NCBI GenBank assembly: GCA_043797665.1
Contig: JAZDPL010000063.1
Coordinates: 1-16,592 of the forward strand
DNA: 16,592 nt
Origin: Candidatus Omnitrophota bacterium
GTDB lineage: Bacteria; Ratteibacteria; UBA8468; MWAK01
Reading direction: 5' to 3'
Shown here: positions 579 through 16,592 of the stretch, piece by piece
Layout of the letters: every line of letters begins with the position of its first letter
Position numbering within the stretch: the stretch's first letter is position 1
Translations under genes and position numbers: made by a program
The notes under the pieces: model-generated
The model's input: the letters and a program-made list of their open reading frames with translations, nothing else
Told to the model about the DNA's origin: nothing
Database searches by the model: none

Positions 579-949
579 ACTCTGGTGGTAGTACCGCTGG
601 TTTTCCTGCTGCCGTAACCGGGTCTGCCACCGCTATTGCCTCTTCTTCCGCCACCTTAACCGGCACAATAAACCCCGATGGTTTGGTTACCACCTACTAC
701 TTCCAGTACGGTTTAGTATCCGGCGGAGGAACTCAGGATATGGTAACCAGGAGCGTGGATGCCGGCTCCGGAACGGACGCTGTTTCCGTCAATGCGCAGA
801 TTTTCAGTCTTTCTCCCGGCACTAATTATTACTACTACGTTGTGGGTATGAACAGGTCGGGAGTAAGTTACGGAGACGCGCAATTCTTTACCACCGAAAG
901 CACCCCGCAGATGGGTAAAGAGCCTTTCGGCGGAAGTACCCTGCAGTAA
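579..949 (+). pseudogene. C-terminal fragment of a fibronectin type III (FN3)-repeat surface or secreted protein, 5' part separated by IS insertion
   Basis: PAAVTGSATAIASSSATLTGTINPDGLVTTYYFQYG...LSPGTNYYYYVVGMNRSGVSYGDAQFFTT matches the FN3-like SATL.G.VNP.G..T.Y.F.YG...L.P.T.YYY...A.N..G..YG....FTT repeat. The ORF-track start (TTG 563) has no RBS and lies inside the putative IS end. Confidence 0.7.
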
Positions 950-950
950 A
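789..950 (+). repeat. 162-bp direct repeat, copy 1 (3' end of the FN3 gene)
   Basis: Aligns without gaps to 1768-1929 (offset 979) with 6 mismatches. Confidence 0.97.
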
Positions 951-1025
951 GAACACTTCCTCTCCACGTCCTTTTACCTCTGTATTGAACCAGCGTACCT
1001 TCTGATACCTTACTTGTTTGTGGTT

Positions 1026-1055
1026 TTGACACCATCTCCGCTGATGGCTTATAAT
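1026..1055 (+). promoter_or_regulatory. Consensus sigma70 promoter of the MNT-HepT operon with an inverted repeat in the spacer
   Basis: TTGACA (1026-1031), 18 bp, TATAAT (1050-1055). The spacer contains CCATC-N6-GATGG. Confidence 0.75.
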
Positions 1056-1130
1056 GGAATATGTAAATACCCATTGAACACCGTGGCAATCTCGTAAGGG
1101 CAAGGATTTGATGAGCGGAGGAGATAAGGA

Positions 1131-1421
1131 ATGAACAAGGAAAAGGTTGAGGAGATTAAAAAAAGAATTATCCCCATACTCAGACGATATAATGTCAGGA
1201 GGGCGGGGATTTTCGGATCGGTCGTAAGAGGTGAGGAGATAGAGAAAAGTGATATAGATGTTTTAGTAGAGATAAAAGAAAGGATGAGTTTACTTGATTT
1301 TGCAGGGTTAAAGTTAGAACTGGAAGAGGCTCTCGGCAAGAAAGTGGATTTGGGAGAGTATTCAACTATCAAACCAATTATAAAAGAACAAATATTAAGC
1401 GAAGAGATGGCTATTCTATGA
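1131..1421 (+). CDS. mntA: Minimal nucleotidyltransferase (MntA-type antitoxin)
   Basis: 96 aa with GSX10DXD motif (GSVVRGEEIEKSDID). GGAGG upstream. Its stop overlaps the next start (ATGA). Confidence 0.92.
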   Translation: MNKEKVEEIKKRIIPILRRYNVRRAGIFGSVVRGEEIEKSDIDVLVEIKERMSLLDFAGLKLELEEALGKKVDLGEYSTIKPIIKEQILSEEMAIL

Positions 1422-1753
1422 AAAGAAACCTGAATCTCTACCTGCAGGATATATGGGAAAGCATCCTGGCAATAGAGGAATACACTCAAAACATTACTGA
1501 GGAGAAATTTCGTTCAACCCGACAGGTCCAGGATGCAGTTATAAGAAGATTGGAAATAATTGGCGAAGCAGTCAAAAATATAGATGAGAATTTTCGAAAT
1601 AAATATCCTGAAATACCTTGGAAGAAAATTTCCGGGATGAGAGATATCATTGCCCATGAATACTTTGGGGTAAGATTTGACAGGGTGTGGGATGTTGTGA
1701 CGAAAGACCTGCCTTCTCTAAAGCAGCAAATGCTTCTAATAATGGGAGAATAA
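1418..1753 (+). CDS. hepT: HepT-like (DUF86) HEPN RNase toxin
   Basis: 111 aa. DAVIRRLEIIGEAVK, YPEIPW and RX4HXY motif (RDIIAHEY). Coupled to the MNT gene. Confidence 0.92.
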   Translation: MKRNLNLYLQDIWESILAIEEYTQNITEEKFRSTRQVQDAVIRRLEIIGEAVKNIDENFRNKYPEIPWKKISGMRDIIAHEYFGVRFDRVWDVVTKDLPSLKQQMLLIMGE

Positions 1754-1767
1754 AATTCCTGTAGGGT

Positions 1768-1929
1768 TCAATGCGCAGATTTTCAGTCTTTCTCCCGGCA
1801 CTAATTATTACTACTACGTTGTGGGTATGAACAGTTCGGGAGTAAGTTACGGAGACGCCCAGTTTTTTACCACCGAAAGCACTCCGCAAATGGGTAAAGA
1901 GCCTTTCGGCGGAAGTACCCTGCAGTAAA
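1768..1929 (+). repeat. 162-bp direct repeat, copy 2 (displaced 3' end of the FN3 gene, no start codon)
   Basis: 156/162 identical to 789-950. Reading frame and stop codon are intact. Confidence 0.97.
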
Positions 1930-1974: not shown

Positions 1975-2214
1975 TTACACCGAAGAATAATGTGTAGTAT
2001 ATTTATCCAGTAGTTCACGTATCATCTTTTGATACTTTGTGTGGTGCCGCTCCGCATGATTTTTGAAAAATTCAACGCTGGATTTTTTCAGAGAAATGGT
2101 AACTTTTACAGTTTTTTCATCAGGCAGAACCAGTCTCTCTGGCGAGGGTAGAAAGTCCTTAACCCTAAACATTTTCCCTACCGGCTCATTCGGGTCCATC
2201 ATCTTCTTTGACAT
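1975..2214 (-). CDS. BrnA/CopG-like (RHH) antitoxin
   Basis: MSKKMMDPNEPVG...KDFLPSPERLV...VKVTISLKKSSVEFFK...HHTKYQKMIRELLDKY, 79 aa. Own ATG at 2214 with GGAG upstream. Confidence 0.85.
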   Translation of the reverse strand: MSKKMMDPNEPVGKMFRVKDFLPSPERLVLPDEKTVKVTISLKKSSVEFFKNHAERHHTKYQKMIRELLDKYTTHYSSV

Positions 2215-2475
2215 AACACTCTTCTCCTTTTCGCCAATATCCGGCGCCAAATATCCTAATCTTGCCGCCACGATAAATCTAACCGTCAAAATTCTTTCCG
2301 CCACCTTTCCGATGCAGAAAAACCTTCCTTCTTCCTCGCTATGCTTGGAATCCACATAAATCTTTCTTCCGGGATCTTTAAAAACCTTTGCAGCAGTTAC
2401 GAAGTCAACTCCGTGCTTCTTAATATTGGCTAATTCTTTTCCGGAGTTCCAGATAAAACCGGATTTTTCATCCAT
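2186..2475 (-). pseudogene. brnT: BrnT-family (DUF497) RNase toxin with a frameshift at about 2273-2277
   Basis: FIWNSGKELANIKKHGVDF...HSEEEGRFFCIG...ILTVRF in one frame. The family-typical continuation RGGKIRIFGAGYWRKGEECYVKEDDGPE* is in another frame (2272-2186). Confidence 0.85.
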
Positions 2476-2483
2476 CCAAATCA

Positions 2484-2512
2484 ATTCTATCACAAAGACA
2501 ACAATTTGTCAA
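2484..2512 (-). promoter_or_regulatory. Sigma70 promoter of the brnT-brnA operon (near-leaderless)
   Basis: Minus strand: TTGACA (2512-2507), 17 bp, extended TGn-TAGAAT (2489-2484). ATG at 2475 lies 8 nt downstream. Confidence 0.7.
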
Positions 2513-4076: not shown

Positions 4077-4126
4077 GTAGGGGCTTGATTTATCAAGCCC
4101 GCGGGGCGGATGAATCCGCCCCCTAC
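4077..4126. repeat. GTAG-type REP doublet (REPIN-like), copy 1
   Basis: GTAG-GGGCTTGA-TTTA-TCAAGCCC-GC-GGGGCGGA-TGAA-TCCGCCCC-CTAC: two inverted hairpins with GTAG/CTAC termini. Confidence 0.85.
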
Positions 4127-4515: not shown

Positions 4516-4565
4516 GTAGGGGTTCGATTTATCGAACCCGCGGGTCGGATGAATCCGACCCCTAC
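4516..4565. repeat. GTAG-type REP doublet (REPIN-like), copy 2
   Basis: GTAG-GGGTTCGA-TTTA-TCGAACCC-GC-GGGTCGGA-TGAA-TCCGACCC-CTAC. 44/50 identical to copy 1. Confidence 0.85.
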
Positions 4566-7097: not shown

Positions 7098-7112
7098 ACG
7101 TAATAAGTAAGT

Positions 7113-7189
7113 TGTCATTCCTGCGGATAGTAAGCAGGAATCTACACCGAGAATAAATGGATTCCCGCTAAAGACACGCGGGAATGACA
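7113..7189. repeat. Palindromic TGTCATTCC...GGAATGACA repeat element between convergent obgE and lysC, probably a bidirectional terminator
   Basis: 9-bp terminal inverted repeat and two internal hairpins, ATTCCTGC/GCAGGAAT and ATTCCCGC/GCGGGAAT. Confidence 0.75.
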
Positions 7190-7191
7190 GA

Positions 7192-8421
7192 TTACTTCCC
7201 CAGGTTAAAAGCCGAATGGAGGGTGCGAACCGCGGCGATTAAGTCTTTTTTACGAATGATGCAGGAAATCTTAATCTCGGAAGTACTTATCATCTCAATA
7301 TTAATTCCCTTTCCACTCAAAGCGGTGAACATCTTAGCGGCCACCCCGGGATGACTCTGCATGCCGATACCAATAATGGATACCTTGGCAATATCCGAAT
7401 CAAAAGCAGACCCTTCCGCACCAACCCCGGGTGTGATTTTACGGACAATCTCCCGGGCAGTTTTCAGGTCTTCATCGGGGATAGTAAACGAAAGGTCGGT
7501 TCTCCCTTCCTTACTCACGTTCTGAACAATCATATCTACGTTAATATTCCGGGAAGCGATGGCGCTGAATATTCTGGCGGCAATCCCGGGCCGGTCCGGT
7601 ACGCCGAACAAAGAAACCTTCGCTTCTTTGTCCGTACCGGTAACCGCAGACACCAGAGGTTCTTCCAAACTCTTCCTTTTTTTCTGTTTGCGTATTCTGG
7701 TAATCATCGTCCCCTCCCCTTCTTCAAACGTAGACTTCACCCGAATAGGAACATGGTACTTCTGCCCGAATTCCACCGCGCGTGCCTGCATCACCGCCGC
7801 CCCGGCGGAAGCCATCTCTAAAGCTTCCTCATAAGAAATTACCGGAATCAGCCGGCTGTTCGGTTCCAACCGCGGGTCTGCGGTAAAGATACCCGGTACA
7901 TCGGTGTAAATTTCGCAGATTTCCGCTTTTAATCCCAACGCTAACGCCACCGCAGAAAGGTCACTCCCGCCCCGGCCCAAGGTGGTAATCCGGTCGTTCT
8001 CAGCCACACCCTGGAATCCGGTTACCACCGCCACGATACCCCGGTCAAGGACATCTCTTATCCTCCTGGTCTGAAGGCGCCGGATACGGGCTTTGGTATG
8101 GACCGCATCCGTAATGATGCCCGCCTCCTTTCCGGTAAAGGCTTGTGCCGGAACTCCTGCCTTTTGCAGAGCCATGGTAAGTAAGGTGGCGGAGACCAAT
8201 TCACCCGTGGAGAGAAGCAGGTCCATCTCCGAACCCCGCTCCCGGTAACCCACCTGATGGGCTAAATCTATCAGGTAGTCAGTGGTATCACCCATTGCGG
8301 AAACAACCACCGCCAATTTAACGCCGGGGTTAAGCCGCGCCTTAATCTTCCGGGCAACCCGGACTATCTTTTCCGGAGTTGCCACCGAAGAACCCCCATA
8401 CTTTTGAACCAGAACAGCCAT
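7192..8421 (-). CDS. lysC: Aspartate kinase with two ACT domains
   Basis: Start at MAVLVQKYGGSSV (ATG 8421). VVSAMGDTTD, TTLGRGGSD, YTDVPG, ISTSEIKIS. Confidence 0.96.
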   Translation of the reverse strand: MAVLVQKYGGSSVATPEKIVRVARKIKARLNPGVKLAVVVSAMGDTTDYLIDLAHQVGYRERGSEMDLLLSTGELVSATLLTMALQKAGVPAQAFTGKEAGIITDAVHTKARIRRLQTRRIRDVLDRGIVAVVTGFQGVAENDRITTLGRGGSDLSAVALALGLKAEICEIYTDVPGIFTADPRLEPNSRLIPVISYEEALEMASAGAAVMQARAVEFGQKYHVPIRVKSTFEEGEGTMITRIRKQKKRKSLEEPLVSAVTGTDKEAKVSLFGVPDRPGIAARIFSAIASRNINVDMIVQNVSKEGRTDLSFTIPDEDLKTAREIVRKITPGVGAEGSAFDSDIAKVSIIGIGMQSHPGVAAKMFTALSGKGINIEMISTSEIKISCIIRKKDLIAAVRTLHSAFNLGK

Positions 8422-13364: not shown

Positions 13365-14209
13365 AATAATGCTTTTAAGTAGCGTTTTAAGGCATCGCTC
13401 CATTCCGGCATCTGATAGCCAACCACGGATTTAAGAGCCGAATTCTCCAGAACCGAATAGGCCGGCCGGGACGCAGTCCGTTTCATCTCCTGAGAGGTTA
13501 CCGCCCGAACCTTAGCCTTTCCTTTAACCGCCTTCACGATGGCACAGGCAAACCCGTACCAGGAGAGCGCACCCTCATTGGTAATATGATATACCCCGTA
13601 TCCGTTATTCCTGATAACCTTAATTATACCCTGCGCCAAATCCTGCGTAAAAGTGGGTGAAACAATCTGGTCCTGAACGACCCGCAGACTTTTCCCGGCG
13701 TTTATCTGGTTTAAAATCGCGGCCGGGAAAGATTTACCATATTTCCCATAAAGACCGGCCGTACGAATAATGAAGAACCGGTCCAGAAGGTTTCGGGTGT
13801 AAAACTCACCGTCCAATTTGGACCGGCCGTAGACCTGAATCGGGTTCGGTGGGTCAGACTCCAAGTATGGCTTCCCCTTTTTACCGTCAAAAACATAATC
13901 CGTAGAAATATAGACCAGAGGAGATTTCAATTTCTGGCAGGCTATCACCACGTTTGCGGTACCAAGTGCATTAACCTGATACGCCTTTTCCGGTTCCTTT
14001 TCACAGCCATCCACGTCGGTAAAGGCTGCGGTATGAATGACCAGACCTGGTTTTAACCCGGTAATGGTCTTGATTATCCTGTCTTTATTCGTAATATCCA
14101 GTTCCGGCAAGTCCAGACCCACCGGCTCAAAATCCCGCGCCAGGGCTGCCATCAGGTCAGTCCCCAACATCCCCCCACACCCGGTCACCAGAACCTTCAG
14201 TCTTTTCAT
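13361..14209 (-). CDS. rfbD: dTDP-4-dehydrorhamnose reductase
   Basis: VTGCGGMLG, HTAAFTDVDGCE, ISTDYVFDG, YGRSK, DQIVSPT, RPAYSVL. ATG at 14209. Confidence 0.96.
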   Translation of the reverse strand: MKRLKVLVTGCGGMLGTDLMAALARDFEPVGLDLPELDITNKDRIIKTITGLKPGLVIHTAAFTDVDGCEKEPEKAYQVNALGTANVVIACQKLKSPLVYISTDYVFDGKKGKPYLESDPPNPIQVYGRSKLDGEFYTRNLLDRFFIIRTAGLYGKYGKSFPAAILNQINAGKSLRVVQDQIVSPTFTQDLAQGIIKVIRNNGYGVYHITNEGALSWYGFACAIVKAVKGKAKVRAVTSQEMKRTASRPAYSVLENSALKSVVGYQMPEWSDALKRYLKALL

Positions 14210-14263
14210 ACTCTTCCGTTCTAAATCGCCCAAACCGGTATCCGCCGGGTAATCACCAAAGGA

Positions 14264-14292
14264 AGTTTACAGAAATCTCAATTATTTGTCAA
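14264..14292 (-). promoter_or_regulatory. Putative promoter of rfbD-aroB
   Basis: Minus strand: TTGACA (14292-14287), 17 bp, TAAACT (14269-14264). Confidence 0.6.
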
Positions 14293-14420
14293 GTCGCGCA
14301 CCTCGCTTCGCTCGGAGCTCTCCAAAGGGAGTTTACACTCCCTATGGCGGTCACTAACGTTCCCTGTTACCCTCTCTACTGAGCAAGGGGGTTTCTCGCC
14401 ACCCCCTTGGCAATCCCCCT
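14293..14420. repeat. GC-rich multi-hairpin intergenic element (MITE-like or structured repeat)
   Basis: CGCTTCGCTCG motif, AGGGAGT-TTAC-ACTCCCT hairpin and CAAGGGGGT-N8-ACCCCCTTG hairpin. Confidence 0.5.
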
Positions 14421-14464
14421 TTGAACCTACGTAGCATAAAAGATATAAATTCCTGTAGGTTCAA
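14421..14464. mobile_element. 44-bp mini-element with perfect 10-bp terminal inverted repeat (putative empty cassette site)
   Basis: TTGAACCTAC (14421-14430) / GTAGGTTCAA (14455-14464). The right half recurs at 1753-1771. Confidence 0.55.
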
Positions 14465-14493
14465 GTGAAACTTACAGTTTGACACGCGTTTCC

Positions 14494-14522
14494 TTGCTTT
14501 TTTTTTTGATTAACGATATAAT
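14494..14522 (+). promoter_or_regulatory. Putative leaderless promoter of HEPN-MNT with a T10 tract
   Basis: TTGCTT (14494-14499), 17 bp, TATAAT (14517-14522). GTG start 6 nt later, no RBS. T run at 14498-14507. Confidence 0.55.
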
Positions 14523-14528
14523 TATATT

Positions 14529-14924
14529 GTGTCCAAACAAACTTATCAGTATTGGTTAAAATCTGCCCGATTAGATTTAAAAACAGCCCGAAATTTATTT
14601 CAGCATCGAGAATATCCGTGGACACTTTTTATCGGCCATCTGACGCTCGAAAAACTTCTTAAAGCTTATTACACAAAGTTTATTGATCCGAAAGTACCTT
14701 ACCGCCACAATCTCTTATTGCTTACTAAGGAATGTAAACTTAAGTTATCTGAAAAACAAACGCAATTCTTCGATGAAATTTCACTTTTTAACATTGCGAC
14801 ACGATATCCGGATGTGAAGTTTCTATTTTATAAAAAGTGTACAGAAAATTTTACCCGGAAATACCTTGAAAAAATCGTTAAATTTGCAGAGTGGTTAACG
14901 GAACAAATTGAAAATGGACCCTAA
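14529..14924 (+). CDS. HEPN domain protein
   Basis: W...A..DL..A...F..H...EKLLKA...HNL...RYP pattern of the classic HEPN family. 131 aa. Confidence 0.9.
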   Translation: MSKQTYQYWLKSARLDLKTARNLFQHREYPWTLFIGHLTLEKLLKAYYTKFIDPKVPYRHNLLLLTKECKLKLSEKQTQFFDEISLFNIATRYPDVKFLFYKKCTENFTRKYLEKIVKFAEWLTEQIENGP

Positions 14925-15222
14925 GTTAATAAAGATAGTTAAAGAATATATTGCAGAATTAAAAAGGAGCCGGCTCCATATCTTACGTGTATATTTATAT
15001 GGTTCGTACGCAAAAAAAGTAAATAAAACTAATAGTGACATTGATGTGGCGGTTATCTCTGATTCTTTCTCCGATGACTGGTTTGAAAATATGAAATTAC
15101 TTCTGAAATTGCGGAGAAAAATTGACCTGCGTATTGAGCCGATTCCTTTTCGTCCCGAAGACTTCAATCCATCCCAGCCTCTTTACCACCAGATAACTAG
15201 AGAAGGGATTCAGATAATATAG
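14914..15222 (+). CDS. Minimal nucleotidyltransferase (MNT)
   Basis: YLYGSYAKKVNKTNSDIDVAVIS (GSX10DXD), IEPIPF. ATG 14914 overlaps the HEPN gene end. Confidence 0.9.
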   Translation: MDPKLIKIVKEYIAELKRSRLHILRVYLYGSYAKKVNKTNSDIDVAVISDSFSDDWFENMKLLLKLRRKIDLRIEPIPFRPEDFNPSQPLYHQITREGIQII

Positions 15223-15239
15223 ACGGCTGGTGTAAAAAC

Positions 15240-16226
15240 CTATACTTTTAGAGGAATCGGCTTATTGCTTCTGGCACTTTCAATAATGCCTTCCATAACC
15301 AGAATGGTTTCCAGGCCCTCTTCCGGTTTTACCGACAATTGCTTTCCCTCAGTTATGGCATCATAAAGGTTCTCATAAAAGGTGAGTATCTTCCAGGGAT
15401 AAGTCTGGTAATATTGTGGTCTGAAAAAATCAAAATCCATCCCTTTTTCCGAATTAAAATAGATGTGCTTCAACATAGTGTCTTCTCTCCTCTGAACCCA
15501 ATCGTGAGTCAGGGAACCTTTGGTACCCAGAAGATAAAACCTGGGCAAGAGGAAAGGCTTTGCCTGGGGAACTGCCGAGACTTCAACCATTAGACCATCC
15601 GGATAGATCAATTGGGCCGAGAAGAATCCCTGGCCATCCCAATTGTTTTCCGGATGAGATAGGATTCCAAAGACTCTTTCCGGCAGTCCGCCCACCAGTC
15701 TCAAAACCTGGTCTATGAGGTGGCTTCCCCATTCATACAAAACATCTACTTCTCCCAGACTTGCCGGATAATAATTTTTTATCAGTTTCAGTTTGCCAAG
15801 CCGACCTTCTTCCATAACCTGTTTCACGTTCAAATAATCTACATCCCAGCGTCTGTTTTGGTGAATGGTCAGGACCCTTTTGGTTTCATCTTTTGTTTTG
15901 AGCAATTCTCTTGCCTCTTCTGAAGTAATACAGAAAGGCTTTTCCACCACCACATCTTTTCCCGTTTTTAAAGCCTTAATCGCTAAAGAAAAGTGGGTGG
16001 AATGAGGTCTGGTTGCGATGATAACCAGGCTTATCTCTTTATCTTCCAGAAACCCGGTAAAATCCTGGTATCCTTTCACCCCGAATTTGTTACAGGTCTG
16101 TTCTAACCTCTCCTTATTCAGGTCGCAGAAAGCCACCAGTTTAAATTTATCCGGGTACTCTTCGGTAATAGTCTTTCCGTGATGACTTGCCCCAAAACCA
16201 CATCCGGCAATTCCCACTCCGATCAC
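15240..16226 (-). CDS. Gfo/Idh/MocA-family oxidoreductase
   Basis: GIAGCGFG Rossmann motif, VVEKP, HQNRRWD, WGSHLIDQ. Confidence 0.93.
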   Translation of the reverse strand: MIGVGIAGCGFGASHHGKTITEEYPDKFKLVAFCDLNKERLEQTCNKFGVKGYQDFTGFLEDKEISLVIIATRPHSTHFSLAIKALKTGKDVVVEKPFCITSEEARELLKTKDETKRVLTIHQNRRWDVDYLNVKQVMEEGRLGKLKLIKNYYPASLGEVDVLYEWGSHLIDQVLRLVGGLPERVFGILSHPENNWDGQGFFSAQLIYPDGLMVEVSAVPQAKPFLLPRFYLLGTKGSLTHDWVQRREDTMLKHIYFNSEKGMDFDFFRPQYYQTYPWKILTFYENLYDAITEGKQLSVKPEEGLETILVMEGIIESARSNKPIPLKV

Positions 16227-16592
16227 TTTTCCTCCTTACCGGGTTCCGCGGCCCACCGGGCGCCGGATACGAAGACCTCCTGGAAGAATTGGTTCTGGCA
16301 CGCTTCTATATTATGCCCCAGCGCCAGATAAAACACTCTTCCTTTTCCCCATGGCTTCACCCAGGCAACCGGACAGAGTATCCCCTGATAGACGGTGGTC
16401 GCCAGAATATGGACCCGGCTGTCATAGTCTAAAAGATACTGTTCATCCTTCACCTTATACTCATAGACCGGCCACTTCTCCCAGTCCTTGACCGTATAAC
16501 CTTCAATGGATTTCGTCACCGGATGTTCCGTGTCTTTAAGGCTAACGAGATACTCCCGGATAAAAGGATGGCCGGTAAAAACTCCCCCGAGC
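16223..16592 (-). CDS. ThuA-domain (trehalose utilisation-like) protein, 5'-partial
   Basis: The frame stays open to the window edge: LGGVFTGHPF...HPVTKSI...DEQY...PVAWVKPWGKGRVFYLALGH. Confidence 0.88.
   Translation of the reverse strand, partial: LGGVFTGHPFIREYLVSLKDTEHPVTKSIEGYTVKDWEKWPVYEYKVKDEQYLLDYDSRVHILATTVYQGILCPVAWVKPWGKGRVFYLALGHNIEACQNQFFQEVFVSGARWAAEPGKEEK

Follow-up and report, generated by a model that had tools for sequence, protein, structure and literature searches.

Insertion sequences of the IS91 family are defined by two distinct ends, oriIS and terIS, by a CTTG or GTTC target beside oriIS, by the absence of a target duplication and by sub-terminal palindromes, and only four of their members are confirmed movers (PMC13181058). 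For IS801, one-ended miniature copies and mobilisation in trans have been documented (PMC3189936, PMC6354349), and for ISCR1 a model combining a circle with homologous recombination has been put forward (PMC13023784). The gene-less IS91 derivatives that we found in print are IS801 fragments or isoforms. The present work deals with a contig of 16,592 nucleotides from a Candidatus Omnitrophota bacterium (JAZDPL010000063.1, assembly GCA_043797665.1), whose whole length is called the window here. A preliminary description of this DNA had proposed a new kind of mini-cassette that shuffles toxin–antitoxin (TA) modules, in which a left and a right motif enclose the mntA–hepT operon at 985–1771 and recur as an empty copy at 14421–14464. 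We consider instead, with a probability of about 80%, that the right motif is the oriIS end, plus target, of a family of non-autonomous miniature elements of the IS91 rolling-circle type, restricted to this lineage, and that the junction at 1768/1769, next to hepT, was produced by the same chemistry.

The four strings on which the cassette proposal was built are all present where they had been placed. The right motif reads AAATTCCTGTAGGGTTCAA at 1753–1771, overlapping the stop codon of hepT (TAA, 1751–1753), and AAATTCCTGTAGGTTCAA at 14447–14464, while the left one reads TTGAACCTACGTAGC at 14421–14435 and TTGAACCAGCGTACC at 985–999. However, the right motif is not confined to TA pairs. In the genome to which the window belongs (G000; 2.69 Mb, 86% complete), 24 short non-coding elements have AAATTCCTGTAGGTT^CAAG, where the caret marks the junction, as their right end; they mostly adjoin or sit inside housekeeping genes. 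These ends were called at 22.9 bits or more with a position weight matrix (PWM) built on the 22-bp core at 14440–14461, the final three letters of the motif being omitted. A search with up to two substitutions gave 22 matches in the 2.69 Mb, against none in a 1.3-Mb Markov simulation, and a motif of two copies is ruled out by these 22 pattern matches and 24 PWM ends. The left end could be mapped for 17 copies and lies 75–238 bp from the right one. Three unrelated interior types were distinguished among the 24, namely a hairpin mosaic (subfamily A, 13 copies), a doublet resembling the GTAG type of repetitive extragenic palindromes (REPs; subfamily B, 6 copies) and a GC-rich hairpin (subfamily C, 4 copies), with one copy of another kind. 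An alignment of 38 ends showed that the only sequence common to all subfamilies is the last 22 bp, an oriIS-like core represented in the window by 14440–14461 (plus strand). On contigs C27, C63, C35 and C68 the copies inspected proved to be short or one-ended, and none has a gene between its ends. As a separate observation, palindromes of 22–24 bp are nested in several subfamily A copies, bringing them to 184–238 bp (for instance G000:C79:57040-57277).

A survey of 65 genomes of the phylum (G000 and 64 others) found the family in four, G000, G001, G009 and G013, all of them unfinished and 70–93% complete. Several G001 copies lie in or between genes whose G000 orthologues are without them, the older junctions being blurred. 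The exact end gave three matches in a wider genome collection, two of them with family context and possibly loci already counted, and 89 stretches in metagenomes, where four of the 65 that were viewed had family context (the check for a transposase covered the open reading frames (ORFs) beside L040). Strict patterns had no match in viral contigs, and the exact end gave only chance matches in plasmids. A known RNA family was also considered and set aside, the three Rfam matches being at chance level and none at the motifs. In all likelihood, this is a real and apparently undescribed family of IS91-type miniature elements that are non-autonomous: the literature within reach (which did not extend to ISfinder, TnPedia and most subscription papers) contains related IS801 fragments and no amplified family of hairpin-mosaic IS91 miniatures.

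The sequence next to the ends was informative about the target. The 24 right ends are followed by CAAG in 17 cases, by CAAA in three and by CAGT, CCAG and CGAG in one each, the remaining one falling at a contig end; the training pattern had some influence on the choice of the first three of these letters and none on the fourth. Fifteen of the 17 mapped left ends begin with CAAG, the others with AAAG and TAAG. The three copies with CAAA downstream nonetheless start with CAAG, and the left CAAG is therefore the element's own and not half of a 4-bp duplication; indeed, no clear target duplication was seen. This left end is terIS-like, CAAG being followed by a hairpin that in the G013 and G009 copies has 7-bp stems and resembles the ter hairpins of IS91. 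The base before the left junction is T in 13 of the 17 copies, GT^CAA is a favoured context (8/17), and TGT^CAA occurs at six of the 17, compared with 1.9% of genomic CAAG (P ~5e-7). Since TGT^CAA is TTGACA on the opposite strand, insertion often falls within a -35 box, which the element then rebuilds.

The element that ends at the second occurrence of the right motif was defined exactly. It is a subfamily A copy of 172 bp at 14290–14461 (plus strand), with a CAAG-led terIS-like left end and an oriIS-like right end, and a paralogous stretch on contig C34 of the same genome is without precisely these 172 bp, reading TTATTTGT^CAAGC, with a single CAAG and neither motif of the preliminary description. 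C34 has other deletions, and loss through the CAAG match is possible, which would leave the element boundaries unchanged. By BLAST, the element has 12 places in G000 and matches in three other genomes. Contigs of related strains (~90% alike) stop matching at 14294 in runs X1, X4 and X5, and earlier in X3, which agrees with the absence of the element from those strains without demonstrating it; the sequencing runs with related DNA share just 5–9% of words, no RNA run was listed among those with related sequence, and none of these contigs is informative across the TA unit. The stretch 14421–14464 consists of the last 41 bp of the 172-bp element and three target bases. It is not an empty site, because it is the end of a filled insertion whose real empty site is without both motifs. 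The TTGAACC arm, which had been taken for one of two 7-bp terminal inverted repeats, is 131 bp downstream of the true left end, and no stand-alone 44-bp copy exists.

The surroundings of this element belong to the host. The target tetranucleotide CAAG (14462–14465, plus strand; CTTG on the bottom strand) is followed by a HEPN and MNT (minimal nucleotidyltransferase) pair at 14529–15222 (plus strand; PF05168 and PF18765), beyond the target site and outside the element; Pfam thus upheld the earlier statement that both occurrences of the motif neighbour MNT/HEPN pairs. At the other side, a promoter-like site of a divergent RmlD-like gene (14264–14292, minus strand; 10/12 consensus match) has a TTGACA box that spans the insertion point, and this box, at 14292, is restored by the first bases of the element. 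The C34 paralogue is itself peculiar: G000:C34:1286-1972 corresponds to 14191–16379 with several large clean deletions, which run through hepN, mnt and an oxidoreductase gene, and it adjoins a transposase-like ORF.

The kinship with IS91 is seen in the ori. The ori and target of IS91, given by a primer in supplement file 1 of PMC13181058, and those of L218, a complete IS91 element of 1,829 bp on a viral contig with Y2_Tnp and Zn_Tnp_IS91 domains, share TAAATTCCT(A/G)T, then 3–4 nt, then T^CAAG. The PWM, trained on the genome, places the L218 ori first (19.0 bits, the next site having 18.0). A relaxed pattern derived from the genome matched at least 120 viral-contig stretches, mostly by chance; L218 is among them, and two further short loci carry IS91-type oris. 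The similarity extends to the 22-mer that PMC13023784 gives as the ISCR1 ori, and among seven annotated IS91-family plasmid loci a clear ori likeness was found in two (L343 and L344) and was absent from the integrase-linked members.

A second line of evidence is the ori palindrome. In L343, which is IS801-like and annotated as IS91-family, a 13-bp arm pairs perfectly across ori^target, in the same geometry as TTGAACCTAC and GTAGGTT^CAAG in the family. In the window this left arm (14421–14430, plus strand) is internal, and its pairing partner is made up of the element's last 7 nt and the target (fold z = -4.4). Across 18 subfamily A tails, 94.4% of the cells are paired, and three tails, from G013 and G009 copies, carry a compensatory change from A:T to G:C; the three are kin and probably represent a single event. 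The TTGAACC/GGTTCAA palindrome is retained by compensatory change and also occurs in the IS801-like element, in a geometry that may already be apparent from published ori alignments. It is present in 13 of the 24 copies (subfamily A) and in none of the other 11, and all 13 true arms are internal, each being preceded by a GGCAATCCCCC-type context. Because the arms are internal and pair across ori^target, the supposed terminal inverted repeat is the ori palindrome, and the left motif is one of its arms rather than an end.

The analysis thus shows the ends and their boundaries, the target preference, the presence and absence of copies, the similarity of the ori and the covariation of the palindrome. 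An element consists of CAAG with a short hairpin, one of the three hairpin-rich interiors and the 22-bp ori, placed before a host T^CAAG. By analogy with IS91 and IS801, an HUH (Y2) transposase acting in trans would nick the bottom strand at CTTG^, this strand would be peeled off from ori to ter, and the single-stranded copy would be joined at a new CTTG; the junction at 1768/1769 would have been made by the same HUH chemistry. In this respect the preliminary description was well aimed, as it had foreseen a non-autonomous end without target duplication and an enzyme provided in trans from outside the window, and the HUH enzyme that it suggested fits best. The family probably works like IS91 without being an autonomous member of it, and a new TA cassette system is not supported.

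Several facts weigh against an IS91-type family. The IS91 transposase profile PF04986 passed the cut-off in two of the 65 genomes, neither of them a carrier (G000 had no match, and a search of 41 relatives gave one, in G008), and PF14319 passed it in none of the four carriers, at their 70–93% completeness. The single intact IS91-family element that the phylum sample contains (L013, in G008) lacks the family ori motif in the DNA examined. The PWM scores the seven annotated plasmid loci weakly (4–6 bits at best), the distance from ori to cut exceeds that of IS91 by 1 nt, and by 2 nt at the TA locus, and the ter hairpin of the G000 copies folds weakly. A short target duplication of 3 bp (CAA) may also remain formally conceivable. 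In addition, no autonomous partner was found by tblastn, and no Y2 transposase gene lies inside any family element or was found in the four carriers. L013 itself (G008:C237:1-2432) encodes a tyrosine recombinase and a Y2 transposase, starts with CAAG and a hairpin at a contig end, and has a right end unlike the family ori. A comparison with another group of HUH elements can also be made: derivatives of IS200/IS605 have a right end carrying TCAA and are associated with an IS200-type TnpA. The family end is TT^CAA, but the left end is also CAAG and the empty site keeps CAAG.

The TA locus is more complex than a unit running from 985 to 1771. That delimitation had missed a 162-bp direct repeat (789–950 and 1768–1929; 96% identity, with 6 of 162 positions differing), whose second copy starts at the cut point of the motif. 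The first copy, R1 (790–950, plus strand), is the 3' half of a secreted fibronectin-III-like gene, starts with CAAT and is 96.3% identical to R2 (1769–1929, plus strand) and 95.0% to a third copy on contig C10, to which R2 is 96.3% identical. C10 has the same fibronectin-III-like gene and the brnT/brnA region without 790–1768. By comparison, the inserted 979 bp comprise a CAAT start, 161 bp that duplicate the downstream flank, a promoter, mntA, hepT and a bare ori, of which the segment 951–1768 (plus strand) is unique and absent from the C10 paralogue. As had been reported, the promoter lies downstream of 985; it is a consensus sigma70 promoter at 1026–1055 (plus strand; 12/12 match). It is followed by mntA (1131–1421, plus strand; PF18765/PF01909), encoding a minimal nucleotidyltransferase antitoxin, and by the overlapping hepT (1418–1753, plus strand; PF01934), encoding a HEPN RNase toxin of 111 aa. 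RX4HXY and GSX10DXD, which we take to be the HepT and MntA motifs, are visible in the translations. The closest HepT homologues (80–83% identity) mostly have 114 aa, and the product here is about 3 aa shorter.

The bare ori at 1753–1768 (plus strand) is a degenerate oriIS-like end with one G more than the family has, fused to the hepT stop. Its ungapped score of 15.7 bits is equalled at 31 positions of the genome, and it was taken as real because it is an exact 19-letter match when the extra G is allowed and meets the boundary of the repeat. On this point the preliminary description was right: the TA pair does lie against a mobile end. The tetranucleotide at 1769–1772 (plus strand), CAAT, may be a target or a surrogate terminus, and the same CCGT^CAAT context is found at 786–793 and in C10. 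Neither 790 nor 951 has a terIS hairpin, and 790 has just a CAAT tetranucleotide. GAAC at 951 was considered as a terminus and set aside, having no ter hairpin, and because its bases complete the stem of a separate hairpin in R1.

This hairpin, imperfect and of about 75 bp (TTTAC...GTAAA stem), ends the fibronectin-III-like gene and is found at 878–953, 1857–1932, G000:C10:918-996 and G000:C17:49376-49452. The C17 copy (z = -3.9) follows what by eye appears to be a 5' fragment of a tRNA, and the DNA downstream of the right arm differs in all four. Its shape is attC-like, no integron integrase was found, and it is present in none of the 64 other genomes. Other features of this region are a 45-bp insert relative to C10 at 1930–1974, with GTAAA at both sides and unique in the genome; brnT and brnA at 1975–2493 (minus strand), which read as one 172-aa frame where a 4-bp gap relative to C10 puts the last part of brnT in the frame of brnA, C10 keeping two ORFs; and, at 1–578, an HTH_Tnp_1 insertion-sequence fragment (89% copy on C27) that adjoins and truncates the 5' end of the fibronectin-III-like gene. 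A 32-bp stretch with the perfect-consensus promoter and a small internal hairpin (1024–1055) recurs before unrelated genes at G000:C72:12064-12095.

How the TA operon came to be next to an ori can be explained in more than one way. We slightly prefer, at roughly even odds and with all its steps conjectural, a one-ended mobilisation in the style of ISCR elements. The ori fused to hepT, being without a terminus, would have started a one-ended copy through the TA operon, with its stop at the CAAT that lies 161 bp inside the adjoining gene; the resulting circle would then have entered a homologous copy of this gene by recombination and so duplicated the 161 bp, as proposed for ISCR1. Three facts count against this history: R1, R2 and C10 are about equally diverged (95–96%), copying would have had to pass six further sites (CAAG or T-CAAA) between 790 and 1768, and no second copy of the TA unit was found.

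The first two of these facts are better accommodated by a history that we regard as somewhat less probable but credible, in which the TA operon was never cargo. A miniature element would have inserted at CCGT^CAAT in the second of two tandem copies of the fibronectin-III gene, and a later microhomology deletion would have brought hepT's 3' end up against the ori, removing the body of the element and the 5' half of the second gene copy. Two events suffice, the insertion would be in the favoured GT^CAA context, the equal divergence of the three repeats (96.3, 95.0 and 96.3%) is as expected and the six candidate stop sites inside the TA unit raise no difficulty. Moreover, HepT homologues end in ...MERENA/ENI, whereas the product here ends in MGE* with N-S in frame past the stop, and back-translation of these protein ends suggests that the 3' end of hepT was probably ori-like in its own right. 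In G009, too, the stop of a housekeeping gene, for a sugar kinase, is fused with a bare ori (L176), and G000 does contain deletion-riddled paralogues (C34). On the other hand, the required tandem pair is not seen, and the match at 984–999 and a weak collinear likeness to the element body would have to be ascribed to chance.

That match is the starting point of a further, unlikely explanation, which is the cassette proposal in amended form, namely that the TA operon was captured by a decayed subfamily A element within its ori palindrome's loop, with the arm at 984–999 and the ori at 1753–1768; such elements could then carry TA or defence genes. The region 984–999 (plus strand) can be viewed as a decayed palindrome arm, with P values from 0.001 to 0.024 according to the definition used. 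In 980 bp, chance would yield a 12/15 match such as the one at 985 with P ~0.005, and one that also keeps the 7-mer intact with P ~0.001, and ATTGAACC is complementary to 1765–1772, that is, to GGTT^CAAT including its non-consensus fourth target base (P ~0.024). The 34 nt upstream (951–984) bear a weak likeness to the element body and align in order with its linkers, 11 of 547 genomic controls doing as well, and the length of the loop is known to vary (29–46 nt from arm to end). Against this, all tests of the 985 site were chosen after the sequence had been seen, 58 of 500 shuffles matched for composition score as high against the element body, and 985 has neither a family-profile match, not being among the PWM matches, nor the GGCAATCCCCC-type context. 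The arm of true copies is a constant C/T-TTGA regardless of the target, and no other copy holds a gene between its ends. It is thus doubtful that 985 is a decayed arm, and even so it would not be an element end. Two other ideas about this area were discarded: an inverted ori at 985 (the 12-mer that it has in common with one G013 copy was equalled in 8 of 546 controls, and the site is not a PWM match) and a likeness of 951–990 to the C63 unit, reached by 4.6% of random windows.

The capture explanation also draws on the neighbours of the family, surveyed through 72 ORFs mostly taken from 96 listed neighbours, some in G001 being named by eye. TA-like pairs adjoin four of the 24 G000 copies (HEPN-MNT, DUF4160/DUF2442 and two MazF pairs), and TA or defence genes adjoin three of 13 copies elsewhere, always outside the element. 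A mild TA excess near family copies is plausible, and it would follow from the targeting of strong promoters in variable regions. In contrast, only two of 14 MNT/HEPN loci of G000 have an ori nearby, both in the window, and none of 14 homologous loci in other genomes has one; once the discovery site is left out, 1 of the 24 ends adjoins an MNT/HEPN locus (P = 0.18). A genome-wide search such as the preliminary description advocated bore out a motif far above chance. The shuffling of TA modules is not supported, as no second TA-carrying unit was found, the empty sites (C34 and C10) are without both motifs and no other left–right pair carries a gene. The outcome is largely what the preliminary description had itself named as a refutation, an insertion-sequence end of a catalogued kind with no left–right pairing around variable cargo. 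The capture of a TA operon is a single, ambiguous case, and a TA-shuffling system is not established.

It would be a considerable extension of the IS91-type reading, and one that we judge distinctly improbable, if the orphan ori/ter pair had become a general carrier in the lineage, served by an HUH enzyme that the IS91 models of Pfam miss, homing to -35 boxes and rebuilding them, ferrying REP-like hairpins and able to hold a whole TA operon in its ori palindrome's loop. It is likewise improbable that the family belongs to the REP/REPIN class and is spread by a resident Y1 HUH enzyme resembling the RAYTs (REP-associated tyrosine transposases), its IS91 likeness being captured or convergent. G000 does encode two Y1_Tnp proteins (weak matches) and no Y2 enzyme was found in it; one of the Y1 genes, L002, is flanked by GTAG hairpins, and subfamily B carries a GTAG doublet, which has 214 loci in the genome. 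However, an ori is near only seven of these 214 loci, neither Y1 gene is flanked by one (no PWM match of 15 bits or more around either), and asymmetric CAAG-ter and ori ends with a CAAG target are IS91 features as PMC13181058 presents them. L001 (G000:C3:3317-4708) has a Y1_Tnp-like N-terminus fused to an extension of ~300 aa, with a hydrophobic segment and embedded hairpin repeats. The window also contains GTAG-type REP doublets and another hairpin repeat (4077–4126, 4516–4565 and 7105–7197), and one related-strain contig skips 7087–7190. Finally, an integron-like cassette system, or an assembly artefact at the duplication, is hardly credible, for although each repeat copy is terminated by the separate 75-bp hairpin, which is also present on C17 (z = -3.9) and directly followed by divergent sequence in all four copies, the integron integrase profile TIGR02249 had no match over cut-off in G000 (86% complete), the right motif has no attC-type ends, and repeats that differ at 6 of 162 positions are unlike a collapsed-repeat artefact.

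If the IS91-type reading is correct, a family of 75–238 bp, amplified and sharing only a 22-bp ori and a CAAG-led left end, amounts to a natural experiment on minimal ends. It would point to the bases that matter for recognition of the ori and reveal selection on an ori hairpin that covers the target. Because the target overlaps TTGACA, which the left end restores, an accumulation at promoters is suggested, and the family may provide a minor second route for the spread of REP-like hairpins.

Compared with IS91, the family has in common the ori core TAAATTCCT(A/G)T, a cut after T and before CAAG, asymmetric ends, a left end made of a tetranucleotide and a short hairpin, and the lack of target duplication. 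It differs in having neither tnpA nor orf121, in its size and unrelated hairpin-mosaic interiors, in its left tetranucleotide (CAAG, that of IS91 being CGAG) and in the additional nucleotide between ori and cut. With IS801, its one-ended miniature fragments, its non-autonomous isoform CRR1 and the IS801-like L343 it shares short ori-bearing pieces that are moved in trans and can capture adjacent DNA, a left palindrome arm that pairs across ori^target, and GAAC/CAAG borders. However, the IS801 pieces are fragments of a parent insertion sequence that is present, while the family is amplified, has its own left end and foreign interiors, and no parent for it was found. The TA locus resembles ISCR1 (PMC13023784) in that a ter-less ori stands beside cargo and a direct repeat of neighbouring DNA, starting from the ori junction, lies on both sides, and departs from it in having no transposase gene between cargo and ori, in being a single instance and in repeats that are 4% diverged. 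GTAG REP doublets and REPINs with their RAYTs (PMC3333891, PMC8266576) are hairpin repeats found between genes and, in frame, within them, and subfamily B contains such a doublet; yet the ends of the family are not REP ends, and most REP doublets of G000 have no ori. Lastly, the miniature transposable elements with inverted repeats (MITEs), Tn3-derived miniature elements with inverted repeats (TIMEs) and mobile insertion cassettes of DDE transposons are likewise small, non-autonomous and multi-copy and at times carry passengers (in part PMC10969869), whereas the true ends of the family described here have no terminal inverted repeats and no target duplication.

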